Below are positions 23,855-61,132 of a stretch of 64,000 bases of DNA, one piece after another; the first letter of the stretch is position 1, and every line of letters begins with the position of its first letter. The translations under genes and the position numbers were made by a program. A model generated the notes under the pieces. The model searched no databases, had not been told where the DNA came from, and worked only from the letters and a program-made list of their open reading frames with translations. This DNA comes from an uncultured Azospirillaceae bacterium (lineage in GTDB: Bacteria > Pseudomonadota > Alphaproteobacteria > Rickettsiales > UBA3002). The stretch covers positions 6,033 to 70,032 of the forward strand of contig CAZMBI010000003.1 of the NCBI GenBank assembly GCA_964564675.1, read 5' to 3'.

Positions 23855-23937
23855 AAAAGATTCCGGGTTACAGGTTTTTGGGTTTCAGGGTATCAGGATC
23901 ATGCCGGAAGCCGGAACCGTTCCCCTTGGAGTCTGTC

Positions 23938-31794: not shown

Positions 31795-32790
31795 TTAAGC
31801 CGCCAGCACGTCTTTGAGCGGCTTGAGCGCCCGCGCGCCGAGTTGCTGGATGATTTGGGTGGCGCACAGGCTGCCCAGCCGCCCGCACTCGGCCAGCGGC
31901 ATGGCATGCACATAGCCATAGAGAAATCCTGCGGCATATAAATCGCCGGCGCCGGTGGTATCAATCACCTCGTTGGCAGGCACCGGGGCAACGTCAAGCC
32001 GTTCATCCTTGCTTAAGATCACCGAGCCTTTTTCGCTGCGGGTGATAATGACCGCATCGCACCGGCCCTGCAGGTGATCAAGGATATCCTCCCAGCTACT
32101 ATCGGGATACAGCGCCCGGGCTTCAGCTTCGTTGGCAAACAATATATCGATATGATTGGTGATAATTTCCTGAAACGCCTCGCGGTGATTGTCGACGCAA
32201 AACACATCCGACAAGGTAAACGCGCTTTTGGCGCCATGGCGCTCGGCCAGCGCGAAGGCATGGCGGACCATGGCCTGATTGTCCGGTGTGCTCCACTGAT
32301 AGCCTTCGATATAGACGACCTTGGCCTTGGCGATGAGCGTTTCGTCGAGGTCGCTGTCGGCCATGTCGCTGCCCGCACCGAGATAGGTGTTCATCGTACG
32401 CTGCGCATCGGGCGTCACCAGAATATAGCTGCAGCCGGTGGGTTTGTCGCCGGTGGCAACGGGCGTATCGAAATCGACTCCCACCGCGCGCAGATCGTGG
32501 CGATAGATACGGCCGAACTGATCGTCGGCGACTTTGCCGATAAAGGCGGTGTGGGCGCCCAGCGATGCCAGCCCGGCCAGGGTATTGGCCGCCGAGCCGC
32601 CGGATACTTCCTGGCTTTGCTCCATATGGCTATACAGCCGGTTGGCCTCTTCCGCCGTGATCAGCGTCATCGCGCCTTTTTTCATATCATAGCGTTCCAG
32701 CAGGGCATCATCGGTAAAGGCGAGAATATCCAAAATGGCGTTGCCGATGGCCACGACGTCGTAGGGTTTATTGCGATCAAGTCCGTACAT
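31795..32790 (-). CDS. PfkB-family carbohydrate/nucleoside kinase (adenosine kinase-like)
   Basis: 331 aa. Contains GGSAANT and the C-terminal anion-hole motif DTTGAGDLYAAGFLYG. Confidence 0.75.
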   Translation of the reverse strand: MYGLDRNKPYDVVAIGNAILDILAFTDDALLERYDMKKGAMTLITAEEANRLYSHMEQSQEVSGGSAANTLAGLASLGAHTAFIGKVADDQFGRIYRHDLRAVGVDFDTPVATGDKPTGCSYILVTPDAQRTMNTYLGAGSDMADSDLDETLIAKAKVVYIEGYQWSTPDNQAMVRHAFALAERHGAKSAFTLSDVFCVDNHREAFQEIITNHIDILFANEAEARALYPDSSWEDILDHLQGRCDAVIITRSEKGSVILSKDERLDVAPVPANEVIDTTGAGDLYAAGFLYGYVHAMPLAECGRLGSLCATQIIQQLGARALKPLKDVLAA

Positions 32791-32802: not shown

Positions 32803-32832
32803 TAGTTGTTTGCAGGTAGTAGTTGTTTGCAG
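32803..32832. promoter_or_regulatory. tandem 13-bp direct repeat TAGTTGTTTGCAG x2 (17-bp period) just upstream of the PfkB kinase start
   Basis: The copies are at 32803-32815 and 32820-32832, both perfect. They lie 13-42 nt upstream of the ATG at 32790 on the coding strand. Confidence 0.35.
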
Positions 32833-32868
32833 ATAGCAGATAGTCGTTAGCCATCAGCGCCGTAACGG

Positions 32869-33606
32869 CTAACCGCTAACGGCTAGTAACTCCCGTGCTT
32901 TCTCCAGATCCGCCGGCGTGTCCACGCCCAGCGGTAGCGCATCCACGATACATACTTCAATTCGCATGCCTTCTTCAAGCGCGCGTAATTGTTCGAGCCG
33001 CTCGCGCTGCTCGAGCGGGCTGGGCGGCAGGCTGACAAAACGCCCAAGCGCCGCCCGGCGATAGGCATACACACCGATATGATGATATAACGGCCCATCA
33101 CCGCCGGGCGCGGCGGCCCGTGTGAAATACAGCGCGCGGCCACGGCGTTCGGTATCAAACGTGATGACGGGCTTGACGACGGCGGGGTTGGTTTTTTCCC
33201 TGTCGTCGGTAATTTCCACCGCCAGGGTGGCGATATCCACCTGCGGGTGACTGAGACCATCCAGCAGGGTGGTAAGCAGGTTCGGCTCGAACGTGGGCAG
33301 ATCGCCCTGCAGATTAATCACGATGTCGTGCCGTCCTTCCGGGTCCACTTGCGCGAGCGCCTCCCAAATACGGTCCGACCCAGAGGCATGCGCCGGATCG
33401 GTCAGCACCGCCTTGCCCCCTGCCCGCTCGACCACCCAGGCGATTTCCGCATCATCGCAGGCGACCACGACCGGGCCGAGCTCGGCCTCGCAGGCGCGGC
33501 GCCAGACATGCGTGATCATCGGCTCATCGCCGATCATGGCGAGTGGCTTATCGGGCAGGCGCGTGGCACGCCGGCGCGCCGGAATCAGAATTATCGGCTG
33601 TGGCAT
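32869..33606 (-). CDS. kdsB: 3-deoxy-manno-octulosonate cytidylyltransferase (CMP-KDO synthetase)
   Basis: 245 aa. Contains [24 protein letters not shown] and LEQLRALE. Confidence 0.9.
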
Positions 33607-56516: not shown

Positions 56517-56641
56517 ACATCACACACCACTGGTTTAATCATCGTTGACGCTACTTAGCATGCTTTCTCTGTCTCCATAGGCATCTTTTCCATGTCCACA
56601 CTATGGATTACTCCCAGCATAATCAGCAGAAAACCACTGCG

Positions 56642-58105
<1,464 letters not shown>

Positions 58106-58263
58106 TCACATGATGAGCGGATAAACAGCTGATCGGGTGATCAGATGGTTAACCGATCGTAGCGTGTCGTTGTGATATCGTTTTTAAGAGATATTTATCC
58201 TCTTTCCGCAATTTTTGCCACTCCCTGTGCGTTGCTCGTCCGTTCATCTGATACCCCATATAT

Positions 58264-59148
58264 CTAAACCGCTTCCGCGCCGGAAATGATCTCAATCAGT
58301 TCTTTCGTAATGGCCGCTTGTCTAGTGCGGTTATATTGCAGCGTCAACCGATCGATCATCTCACCGGCGTTGCGGGTGGCGTTGTCCATCGCAGTCATAC
58401 GCGCGCCCTGTTCGCTGGCGGCGCTTTCAAGCAGCGACTTGAAAATCTGCATAGACAGATTGCGTGGGAGCAGATCGGCGAGAATGGTGGCTTCATCCGG
58501 CTCATATTCATACGGCACAGCTTCGGTCCGGCCGGCCTGCTCGACTGGTGTGTCCAGCGTCAGCGGAATGAGTTGCTGCCAGGTGACCACTTGCGCGATG
58601 ACGGATTTGAAATGGTTATACACCACCCAGCAGACATCATACGACTCGGTTTCATACAGCGCGACCACCTGTTCGCCGATACGCTCGGCCGTCTCATACC
58701 CCAAATTTTTACGCCCCACGTCGCTGATCTGGCCGACAATCGCCTCGCCGTATTCGCCTTTGAGCAGATCATAGCCCTTGCGTCCGACGCAAAACAGCCG
58801 GACATCCTTGCCTTCCGCATGCAGCGCTTTGATCTTCTGGCGCACCGAGCGCACGATACTGCTGTTAAACGCGCCGCACAGCCCGCGGTCAGCCGTGGCC
58901 ACAATAATCAGGTGTTTGTCGGAGCTGCCCGTGCCGCGCATCAGCAGCGGCGCCTGATCCATATTGTCAATCCCGGCGCTCAGGGACTGCACCATCCCCT
59001 CCATACGCTCGGCATAGGGCCGTGCGGCTTCCGCTGCCTCGCGCGCGCGGCGCAGCTTGGCCGCTGCCACCATCTTCATCGCTTTGGTGATTTTCTGCGT
59101 ATTTTTAACCGACCCGATGCGGTTTTTTAGATCCTTGAGGCTGGGCAT
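58264..59148 (-). CDS. atpG: F0F1 ATP synthase subunit gamma
   Basis: 294 aa. Contains [35 protein letters not shown] and the C-terminal [14 protein letters not shown]. Confidence 0.95.
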
Positions 59149-59157
59149 GCCACTCCC

Positions 59158-59189
59158 GAAGTTACGAAATTACGAAGTCACGTAGTCAC
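59158..59189. repeat. tandem octamer array GAAGTTAC GAAATTAC GAAGTCAC GTAGTCAC (arm 1 of an inverted pair)
   Basis: Read directly from the sequence. It is the reverse complement of the array at 59566-59589. It spans the stop codon of the four-helix-bundle ORF and abuts the atpG Shine-Dalgarno sequence. Confidence 0.85.
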
Positions 59190-59595
59190 GAATTTTATAC
59201 AACATGCGTTGCACCTTATCGTAACCATCGTTGAAGGTTAACCATTGAGCGTCGGTAATATAACCAAGCTCCTTACAATAATCCAGCCACACCTGGGTTT
59301 CATACGCAGAACCCAGCGCCAGCATCATAAAACGGTTGAATTCGGGTCTGGAATATTGCTGCCGTCCAAACCCTTCCGCAATATTGGCGCAGATACTTTT
59401 GCTGGAGCGACGAATTTGATCGCTTAACGCATATCGCTCTTCTTTCGGAAATTGATGAGAAAGCGCATGCAACTCAAGTGATAATGAAAATGCCTCTTTA
59501 TATACATTTAAATCACGGAAATGCGCAACAAACGACGCAGATCTGCTTTCTGCAAATCCCTCCGCGTGACTTCGTGACTTCGTGACTTCGAGCAT
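59170..59595 (-). CDS. four-helix-bundle protein (23S rRNA intervening-sequence protein family)
   Basis: 141 aa. FRDLNVYKEAF...FPKEERYALSDQIRRSSKSICANIAEGFGR...GSAYETQVWLDYCKELGYI matches my memory of the family consensus. One sampled line gives about 40% GC. Confidence 0.8.
   Translation of the reverse strand: MLEVTKSRSHAEGFAESRSASFVAHFRDLNVYKEAFSLSLELHALSHQFPKEERYALSDQIRRSSKSICANIAEGFGRQQYSRPEFNRFMMLALGSAYETQVWLDYCKELGYITDAQWLTFNDGYDKVQRMLYKIRDYVTS
59566..59589. repeat. tandem octamer array GTGACTTC x3, perfect (arm 2 of the inverted pair)
   Basis: Read directly from the sequence. It lies inside codons 3-10 of the four-helix-bundle ORF, 14 nt from the atpA stop. Confidence 0.85.
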
Positions 59596-59602
59596 TCGAA
59601 AC

Positions 59603-61132
59603 CTACTTCATCAACTGCACGATCGACTCAATGGCCGATTTGATCTGGATTTCCAGATCATCGGACAGCACGGCCTTATCGCGTATGGTGGCCAGCAGCT
59701 CCTTGCGGTTGGTGCGCAGCTCGCGCAGCAGATTCTGCTCAAACTCACCGACTTTCTCCACCGGCACATCATCGAGATAGCCGCGCACGCCGGCGAAAAT
59801 CACGCACACCTGCTCTTCCATCTGCAGCGGCGCGTATTGCGGCTGCTTGAGCAGCTCGGTCAGGCGCTGCCCGCGCGCCAGCAATTTCTGAGTGGCGGCA
59901 TCCAGATCCGAGCCGAACTGGGCAAAGGCTTCCATCTCGCGGAACTGGGCAAGCTCAAGCTTGATCGAGCCGGCCACCTGCTTCATCGCCTTTTTCTGCG
60001 CCGATGAGCCAACTCGGGAAACCGACAACCCGACATTTACCGCCGGTCGTACCCCCTTATAAAACAACCCGGTCTCCAGAAAGATCTGCCCGTCGGTAAT
60101 CGAGATGACGTTGGTGGGGATATACGCCGAGACGTCTCCCGCCTGGGTTTCGATAATGGGCAGGGCGGTCAGCGATCCGGCGCCCTGATCGTCAGACATT
60201 TTGGCGGCCCGCTCCAGCAAGCGCGAGTGAATGTAAAAGACGTCTCCCGGATAGGCTTCACGCCCCGGAGGGCGGCGCAGCAGCAGGGACATCTGGCGGT
60301 AAGCCACGGCCTGCTTGGACAGATCGTCATAAATAATCAGCGCGTGACGGCCGGAATCGCGGAAATATTCGCCCATGGCGCAACCGGTGTATGGCGCCAA
60401 GAACTGCAGCGGCGCCGCTTCGGATGCGGTTGCCGCCACCACCACCGTGTAATCCAGCGCGCCAGCTTCCTCCAGCGTTTTGACCACCTGCGCCACGGTC
60501 GAGCGCTTCTGCCCGACACAGACATAAACGCAAAACAGCTTTTCTTTTTCGTTACCGGACTCATGCGCGGGCTTTTGATTTAAGATCGTATCGATGGCGA
60601 TCGCCGTTTTCCCGGTCTGTCGATCACCAATGATCAATTCGCGCTGGCCGCGGCCGATCGGGATCAGCGAATCAATCGATTTAATCCCGGTTTGCACCGG
60701 CTCATGCACCGATTTGCGGTAGACAATGCCCGGCGCTTTGACTTCGACCCGGCCGCGTTTCTCGCTTTTAATCGGGCCCTTGCCGTCAATCGGGTTGCCC
60801 TGGGCGTCCACCACGCGGCCAAGCAGCTCCTCGCCGACCGGCACGTCGACAATGCTGTTGGTGCGCTTGACCGTATCGCCTTCCTTCACGCTGCGGTCGT
60901 CCCCGAAAATAACCACGCCGACGCTATCCGTCTCCAGATTCAGCGCCATGCCGCGCATGCCGTTTGGAAACTCAACCATCTCACCGGCCTGTATCTGCTC
61001 CAGCCCGTAGACGGTGGCTACGCCGTCGCTTACCGAGACCACCTGACCGACCTCAGCGAGCTCCGCCGCGTCTTCATAGCCGGTGATCTGCTGCTTGAGA
61101 ATGTCTGAAATTTCCGAAGGACGAATATCCAT
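59603..61132 (-). CDS. atpA: F0F1 ATP synthase subunit alpha
   Basis: 509 aa with Walker A GDRQTGKT. Confidence 0.97.

Follow-up and report, generated by a model that had tools for sequence, protein, structure and literature searches.

Why an F1 operon should carry, between the genes of its alpha and gamma subunits, a gene of the family known from the intervening sequences (IVSs) of 23S rRNA, and what such an insert may do there, is the question raised by the 64-kb stretch of DNA analyzed here (the window; contig CAZMBI010000003.1 of an uncultured Azospirillaceae bacterium). On its minus strand, at 56.1-61.7 kb, the gene order is atpH-atpA-[ORF]-atpG-atpD-atpC, the inserted gene being an open reading frame (ORF) of 141 aa that starts 7 nt past the atpA stop and ends 21 nt ahead of the atpG ATG. 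The coordinates bear out both the order and the spacing with which the initial annotation, made from the letters alone, had described this interruption of the cluster atpH-atpA-atpG-atpD-atpC. The present analysis shows that the insert very probably belongs to a class of IVS-like cassettes, in which an S23p ORF is enclosed by complementary tandem arrays, and we slightly favor the reading that it is a promoter-less cassette, built like an ORF-bearing 23S IVS, whose helix insulates the host transcript at this junction. The features of the locus are as follows.

59603-61132, minus strand: atpA (F1 alpha), the upstream host cistron (Pfam ATP-synt_ab, E 1.1e-81)
59605-59603, minus strand: stop codon of atpA, UAG
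59149-59602, minus strand: the whole cassette, 454 nt, equal to the entire atpA-atpG spacer and missing from strains that are 99% identical
59170-59595, minus strand: S23p or four-helix-bundle (Avd-like) ORF, 141 aa (PF05635, TIGR02436, 2GSC, PHROG)
59565-59592, minus strand: 5' arm (sense RNA) of the helix that encloses the cassette; ORF codons 2-11 are encoded here (period 8, 3.2 copies, 100% match)
59155-59196, minus strand: 3' array of four to five degenerate units (period 8, 4.5 copies, 82% match)
59153-59157, minus strand: Shine-Dalgarno sequence of atpG, GGGAG (from the pair table of the fold)
58264-59148, minus strand: atpG (F1 gamma), the downstream host cistron (Pfam ATP-synt, E 5.3e-104)

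The only in-frame start of the ORF is the ATG at 59595-59593, upstream of the 5' arm, and its UAA stop (59170-59172) lies, together with the last ORF codons, inside the 3' array. The product scores 120 bits with PF05635, "23S rRNA-intervening sequence protein" (E 6.6e-35), and 110.4 bits with TIGR02436, "four helix bundle protein" (E 4.7e-32), the curated cut-offs being 33.8 and 24 bits, respectively. The family assignment that had been made from the letters is thereby upheld. Sequence homology extends to the PDB entries 2GSC (E 2.7e-12) and 2RLD, both of which have five chains in the deposited structure, and PHROG 3206, 'Avd protein of DGR' (DGR, diversity-generating retroelement), also matches the ORF (E 6e-8). 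When the window protein is aligned with its homologues (28 sequences in all), the conserved core residues P50, E53, Q60, R62, R63, C69, A70, N71, A73, E74, G75, S82, R88, S96, E99, and W103 are invariant. No recombinase, transposase, or nuclease domain was detected in the ORF by the Pfam, TIGR family, and PADLOC scans, the last of which gave no match for the ORF at all.

The inverted octamer arrays are present at both flanks, where they were first described. The 5' arm contains GTGACTTC three times without mismatch at 59566-59589, with three perfect CGAAGUCA units within 59565-59590, while the 3' array (its degenerate reverse-complement units located at 59157-59196) has the units CGUGACUA, CGUGACUU, CGUAAUUU, and CGUAACUU. 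A 16-nt double unit, with up to three mismatches allowed, has 6 matches in 64 kb, where 0.22 are expected. Because all six fall inside the two arms, the octamer occurs nowhere else in the 64 kb, which rules out a generic dispersed repeat, one of the possibilities raised at the outset. Neither a second copy of the S23p gene nor a second octamer array of the CGAAGTCA type was found within the 64-kb window, and Rfam gave no family match in it, rRNA included.

In the fold of the sense RNA, positions 59565-59592 pair with 59155-59182 to form a helix of 28 bp with two C·A mismatches and pair probabilities of 0.82-0.99, most of them 0.9 or higher, the loop inside it being the 382-nt coding sequence. 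The helix closes the minimum-free-energy fold of 59140-59610 on the minus strand (z = -4.06 relative to shuffles), and blocking the arm-arm pairing costs approximately 30 kcal/mol. The enclosing stem proposed earlier is thus upheld as the closure of the optimal fold, but the proposed length of about 24 bp was too short. The arms overlap the first codons of the ORF and its stop codon, and the 3' arm touches the atpG Shine-Dalgarno sequence, as had been noticed from the letters and is now seen in the pair table of the fold. Here, the cassette AUG-CUC (59595-59590) is paired with the GGGAG of atpG (59153-59157) through G59157-C59590, G59156-U59591, G59155-C59592, G59153-U59594, and U59152-A59595. 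At the foot of the helix, G59603, with which the atpA stop codon ends, pairs beside codon 2 of atpG, and the helix brings the stop of atpA up to the start of atpG.

The design of this cassette is that of a whole family. A scan of one genome per species gave 80 loci (designated L below) with homologues at 45-59% identity, and nearly every gene in them is flanked by inverted arrays of 7- or 8-nt units. After removal of near-duplicates, 65 loci were left, namely, 38 rRNA IVSs and 27 non-rRNA cassettes. Periodicity was read from lag profiles, an earlier +1/-2 score over periods 5-12 having been dropped as too strict and blurred by codon periodicity. In 59 of the 65 loci, the best autocorrelation period is common to the two arms and amounts to 7 or 8 nt; one of these two periods is the best in 27% of control segments taken from these loci. 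The number of units per arm is about four, mostly two to six. Among the rRNA IVSs, 35 are located in helix 45 of the 23S rRNA, 34 of which have period 7 in both arms, and three in helix 25 (L025, L028, L047), while about half of the non-rRNA cassettes have 8-nt units.

The complementarity of the arms was evaluated by an ungapped arm-versus-arm score with controls; whole-flank RNAduplex was dropped, its energies being inflated even for non-cognate pairs. The best ungapped match has a median length of 31 nt with about 90% complementarity, and the cognate arms outscore all their shuffled controls in 26 of the 27 non-rRNA loci and in each of the 35 helix-45 loci. The unit sequences differ by locus (CAGAnnn, GAATCTCA, AGTTGCG, GGATGTT, GCTGATT, CGATGGTT), and within a locus the variable unit positions are mirrored, in register, in the opposite arm. 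The 4-nt core of the unit goes with the group, being CGAA in the window clade, CAGA in the rRNA IVSs, and AGTT in the leu clade. Such arrays are carried also by distant metagenome homologues (34-44% identity). A metagenome scan with the window protein gave distant homologues only, the close relatives having come from exact-protein look-ups. The layout of S23p ORF and complementary tandem 7/8-nt arms is thus common to the 38 IVSs and the 27 cassettes, in agreement with the proposal of the initial annotation that an IVS-type cassette has entered an mRNA operon.

The same comparison bears on the base composition. The interior of the window cassette has a GC content of 0.44 and the flanks 0.59; that the cassette lies below its flanks had been stated correctly, the value of about 40% given for it being slightly low. 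The interior is lower than the flanks in 27 of 27 non-rRNA loci (median 0.43 vs 0.56), and the cassette GC tracks that of the host (Spearman 0.77), so low GC is a property of the family. It was therefore rejected as a sign of recent transfer, and it does not support a foreign origin.

A number of further arrays were observed. The window holds two: at 32803-32885, a 78-nt spacer between the minus-strand ORFs 31795-32790 and 32869-33606 has the heptamers GCAGATA twice and TAACGGC three times together with a 19-nt imperfect hairpin, and could be a lone array that lacks an S23p gene; at 23861-23897, on the plus strand and directly ahead of an ATG at about 23901, there is a degenerate 8-nt array (TTCAGGGT, 4.8 copies, 66% match), for which no complementary partner arm was found within 1.2 kb. 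In L069, a non-rRNA locus close to the helix-25 IVS proteins, the 5' array (approximately 2360-2500) has grown to about 15 or more GAAATCA/GAAATCT units and the 3' arm (2887-2912) has three units only, that is, the expansion is one-sided. The arms of the helix-25 IVS L047 exceed all others observed in length, with GAAGTCA-type heptamers in an ungapped match that spans 74 nt and agrees at 62 of these positions. The distant homologues L087 and L089 (34-43% identity) have GAAGTAAY/TTCGTTAC-type arrays directly upstream of a gene starting LAIERTF, which, judged by this peptide alone, is probably ndk.

Conservation of the helix was analyzed in an alignment of five atpA|atpG cassettes (window, L002, L003, L091, L095) with amino-acid identities of 53-80%. 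RNAalifold finds the terminal helix again in this alignment. For the terminal helix alone, 86.4% of the cells are standard pairs, both sides have changed in 11 of the 24 pairs, and none of 500 shuffles attains any of the five measures; with the partner slid by 1-3 columns as a control, 30-47% are paired. The columns of the CGAA core never vary, and the remaining helix positions co-vary. The helix is thus conserved by compensatory changes, down to 53% amino-acid identity. The protein of the window is 72% identical to that of L002 over its whole length and 77% over the core, about the same divergence as that of AtpG, and the comparison gives dN 0.19 with saturated dS and a dN/dS of about 0.08, from which it follows that the S23p sequence is under purifying selection.

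The neighbors of the 27 non-rRNA loci were identified by Pfam, and some by terminal peptides, and show the following junctions to be occupied.

atpA|atpG: the window, L002, L003, L016; by terminal peptides, L036 and L072
atpG|atpD: L024
x|atpC: L066
accB|accC: L004; by terminal peptides, L007 and L031
leuD|leuB: L009; by terminal peptides, L026
x|leuC: L014
frr|uppS: L018; by terminal peptides, L022
x|purB: L033
pepA|holC: L054
glyA|nrdR: L080
trxB|lysR: L075
map|radC: L017
x|ribD: L077
DUF484|integrase (xerC-like): L039
sspB|x: L076
PPIase|alpha-amylase: L051

All Pfam-verified flanking genes are co-directional with the cassette, and among the ORF-based picks of neighbors the downstream ORF is on the cassette strand in 23 of the 25 non-rRNA loci having a pick. 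The exact-protein look-ups added two atpA|atpG cassettes, L091 (66% identity) and L095 (55%), and one more ahead of cvpA. The arms usually start 0-12 nt past the upstream stop and leave 0-20 nt between their end and the start of the downstream gene, and in some loci they overlap the flanking stop or start codons. When the protein cores are placed in a neighbor-joining tree, the rRNA copies group in a single broad clade and the atpA|atpG occupants are scattered over at least four positions, implying that this spacer has been colonized repeatedly or that cassettes have been exchanged. The context, which the initial annotation had called unusual, is accordingly a recurrent site with polyphyletic cassettes.

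Two observations were made in passing at these junctions. In the frr|uppS cassettes (L018:2846-2885, L022:1664-1702), the codons for the N terminus of the ORF-called uppS (MSINQPISQSANQ...) include the 3' arm, so that arms can be read as coding sequence of a neighboring gene and also as N-terminal extensions of S23p (MTESRNLGISESRN). For annotation, this means that the N-terminal extensions in many database entries named "four helix bundle protein", and in some neighboring genes (e.g., uppS), are apparently repeat arms that have been translated. A second homologue of PF05635 type, diverged to 37% identity, is encoded on the minus strand of L075 (L075:393-743), about 1.8 kb from the trxB|lysR cassette and on the strand opposite to it.

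The cassette at atpA|atpG is gained, lost, or replaced on short time-scales. The metagenome contigs L084 and L085 are 99% identical in DNA to the window over atpH-atpA and over atpG-atpD-atpC, with evenly spread single-nucleotide differences, and have a spacer of 116 nt (L084:2385-2500, L085:257-372) instead of the 454-nt cassette. Homology ends at the atpA stop codon and restarts 1 nt ahead of the atpG ATG; the swapped segment reaches from the third base of the atpA stop to codon 4 of atpG, codons 3-4 differing by five synonymous changes. The short spacer was considered as a deletion product of the window cassette, which was rejected because the similarity does not go beyond that of shuffles. 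It reads as some five degenerate GAATnnnn units, after which come ATG GCA GAA GTA ATA GAA ACC CGA TTC (MAEVIETRF) and a stop, to be compared with the N-termini MANVIETDF of P0004 and MAEVIKGNF of P0006. It matches the start of the L095 cassette in 21 of 24 nt (score 33, shuffle maximum 25), and it folds weakly (z = -1.5). These similarities are suggestive of what remains of another cassette allele after truncation.

The syntenic loci L096, L097/L098, and L099, with 85-87% AtpD identity, have atpA-atpG gaps of 1-4 nt, e.g., TAA-gc-ATG in L097, and are true empty sites. The AtpG of L002, where the cassette is present, is 72% identical to that of the window, and those of the empty L096, L097, and L099 are 72-73% identical to it (L002 vs L096, 81%). 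Relatives that are equally distant in AtpG thus differ in having the cassette, which means that its distribution is patchy. A comparison of the window with the empty site gave no convincing target-site duplication, the ATGC at both ends being too short to count. Relatives having the gene at this site without arrays and at normal GC had also been envisaged at the outset; the occupied L002 and L003 have gene, arrays, and low GC together. The data fit either an old residence with repeated loss or repeated homologous replacement via the conserved flanks, and the turnover probably proceeds by recombination through the conserved flanking genes.

Other spacers of this operon are also long. In the window, the atpG-atpD spacer (58091-58263) has 173 nt with a GC content of about 0.47 and the atpD-atpC spacer (56517-56641) has 125 nt. 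Relatives have unrelated small ORFs without arrays at atpG|atpD (L096:3474-3977, L097:3706-3981, L095:2927-3661), namely, ORFs of 167 and 91 aa without a Pfam match and one methyltransferase. Inserts seem to be tolerated generally in the spacers of the F1 operon in this group.

What the helix may do at this junction can be considered by analogy to rRNA. The IVS of Coxiella burnetii has the unit GACAGAT repeated two to three times, with a copy number that varies among strains, and its 28-bp stem is cut by RNase III at mid-stem (PMC4990558). For the window, we put the chances at about even that the helix acts at the RNA level, by RNase III cutting or by a translational route. In either case, it would insulate the host transcript, as in rRNA, from an insert of 454 nt at a junction that normally measures 1-4 nt, and the insert is placed where the subunit stoichiometry falls from alpha (3 copies) to gamma (1 copy). 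Along the first route, RNase III would cut the 28-bp stem to yield separate atpHA, cassette, and atpGDC RNAs; a cut inside the helix would remove the start codon of the ORF in this copy, and S23p would then be made only from uncut mRNA. Along the second, ribosomes that terminate on atpA, whose stop is 7 nt away from the helix, would unwind the lower end of the stem, which would allow coupled initiation at the cassette AUG and free the Shine-Dalgarno sequence of atpG, and ribosomes completing S23p would stop 21 nt ahead of the atpG AUG. The two routes would be non-exclusive. Both RNase III cleavage and a tuning of gamma/beta/epsilon translation, which the initial annotation had also put forward, are inferred from the likeness to the rRNA IVSs (PMC4990558).

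Several points weigh against an insulating helix. The arm mismatches are symmetric, with G·U-type to A·C-type ratios of 42:51 in the non-rRNA loci and 37:32 in the rRNA loci, and since there is no G·U excess, selection on RNA rather than on a DNA palindrome is not demonstrated. This count, intended as a discriminator between RNA and DNA, was dropped as uninformative for the same symmetry. The sense duplex is more stable than the antisense one in 32 of 35 rRNA loci, a comparison that is confounded by the rRNA helix itself and was likewise set aside, and in the non-rRNA loci there is no difference (13 vs 17). Periodic arms with an invariant 4-nt core are not explained by pairing alone, and slippage-driven turnover, or a repeated binding motif for an S23p ring, are possible sources of the periodic core. 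A 28-bp helix over the ribosome-binding site of atpG could also be a cost that the host tolerates. Finally, the S23p of Coxiella was judged by its authors to be probably untranslated and decaying (PMC4990558), whereas the ORF of the window is constrained, and the two cases may therefore work differently.

The turnover and the lack of a G·U bias in the arm mismatches would suit a different reading, in which the arms act in the DNA, where they would be the terminal inverted repeats of a mobile element and form a cruciform or hairpin for a recombinase, either S23p or a host enzyme, and the RNA helix is incidental. Presence and absence differ between 99%-identical strains with the entire spacer replaced, the cassette is patchy among relatives equally distant in AtpG, and polyphyletic cassettes occupy the same spacers; moreover, the older literature proposed IVSs to be transposition remnants or mobile elements with a mobility ORF (PMC4990558). 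We nevertheless consider such an element unlikely, because the comparison with the empty site (TAA-gc-ATG, L097) shows no target-site duplication, the ORF has no detected recombinase, transposase, or nuclease domain, and the 64 kb hold no second copy of the gene or of the array. The co-orientation with host transcription and the purine-rich 5' arm of the sense strand (median purine fraction 0.67, above 0.6 in 51 of the 65 loci) point instead to a strand-specific constraint at the transcript level. A helix that is merely left over from an rRNA origin, within a functionless, decaying hitch-hiker that the host tolerates, is very improbable. Close strains manage without the cassette, remnants such as the L084 spacer exist, and the Coxiella ORF is decaying (PMC4990558), but the dN/dS of about 0.08 with the conserved residues of the family intact, and a helix kept by compensatory changes to 53% amino-acid identity, are not expected of such a relic. 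The single remnant observed that lacks the ORF has a decayed fold (z = -1.5), which suggests that the helix is selected together with the ORF.

The periodicity of the arms could also have its origin in the protein. The tandem units would then be repeated binding sites of a ring-shaped S23p oligomer, similar to the GAG repeats for TRAP, and S23p bound to its own arm, as RNA or DNA, would control the helix, its own translation, and the downstream gene. The invariant 4-nt core with a variable remainder, the approximately four units per arm alongside the five chains with which 2GSC and 2RLD were each deposited, the purifying selection on S23p, and the role of the DGR homologue Avd as an essential accessory of the reverse transcriptase in retrohoming (PMC10053308) are all consistent with this. 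We hold it to be quite doubtful, however, as the core differs between clades, so that the specificity of the protein would have to co-evolve, and replication slippage could keep the periodicity, the unit number varying among Coxiella strains (PMC4990558). A HEPN-like nature of S23p was also considered, but the literature search gave no confirmation of it, and it was set aside. A broader proposal is that S23p cassettes are a widespread class of selfish elements at the RNA level that had gone unrecognized, residing in highly expressed conserved units (23S rRNA helices and junctions between translationally coupled housekeeping genes), with the arms serving both as a cut or fold signal and as a repeated binding site of a ring-shaped, Avd-like S23p and with S23p controlling processing or the spread to empty sites, e.g., by recruiting a reverse transcriptase as Avd does in DGRs; this is, in our estimation, unlikely.

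The promoter-less, IVS-like cassette with an insulating helix can be compared with several known systems. With the 23S rRNA IVSs (helix 45 or 25; Leptospira, Coxiella burnetii) it shares the PF05635 family, a size of about 430-450 nt, a GC content below that of the host, a sporadic occurrence among strains, and an ORF inside a terminal stem of about 28-33 bp made of tandem short units. It differs from them in that the host is a polycistronic mRNA, atpHAGDC, entered between atpA and atpG, and not a 23S rRNA with its insertion sites in helices 9, 25, and 45, in that the unit is of 8 nt instead of 7, and in that the arms overlap the cassette AUG and the atpG Shine-Dalgarno sequence; excision would here cut the mRNA, whereas rRNA fragments stay together in the ribosome. 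Intercistronic hairpins processed by RNase III, such as the R sites of the early region of phage T7 and that of E. coli rpsO-pnp, are short and enclose no gene. They resemble the present case as long near-perfect helices located between cistrons, through which the mRNA on the two sides could meet different fates, but in the window a coding sequence of 382 nt forms the loop and tandem arrays form the arms.

Avd of the diversity-generating retroelements is a homologous four-helix-bundle protein (PHROG 3206; PMC10053308), but the immediate neighbors of the window gene are atpA and atpG and not a reverse transcriptase or a template/variable repeat. In 59050-59700, no direct repeats besides the arrays were found, so that this hallmark of a DGR is absent there, the reverse transcriptase having been judged from the immediate neighbors only. 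To our knowledge, Avd genes do not carry inverted tandem arrays. Palindromes of the REP/BIME or MITE-like type are likewise intergenic, strain-variable, and found in operon spacers; they are, however, non-coding and multi-copy with a sequence shared within the genome, whereas the unit of the window is locus-specific, is accompanied by a conserved protein, and occurs at one place in 64 kb. From IS elements and MITEs the cassette differs in having no target-site duplication, no transposase domain, and no second copy in the 64 kb.

The tandem heptamers of Coxiella and the homology to Avd had been noted before, and the generalization to operon junctions appears to be new. A search of the full-text literature, which leaves most subscription journals outside its coverage, found no description of cassettes in protein-coding operons or of the family-wide arm design, and the cassettes in the gaps of housekeeping operons apparently form a widespread, undescribed set. 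The origin, spread, and purpose of the rRNA IVSs and of their conserved ORF have been debated since about 1990 (PMC4990558). With the same cassette at protein-coding junctions, a shared arm design, a constrained ORF, and presence and absence at the level of strains, this question becomes testable: mRNA hosts allow processing, translation coupling, and protein function to be assayed while the ribosomes are left undisturbed.

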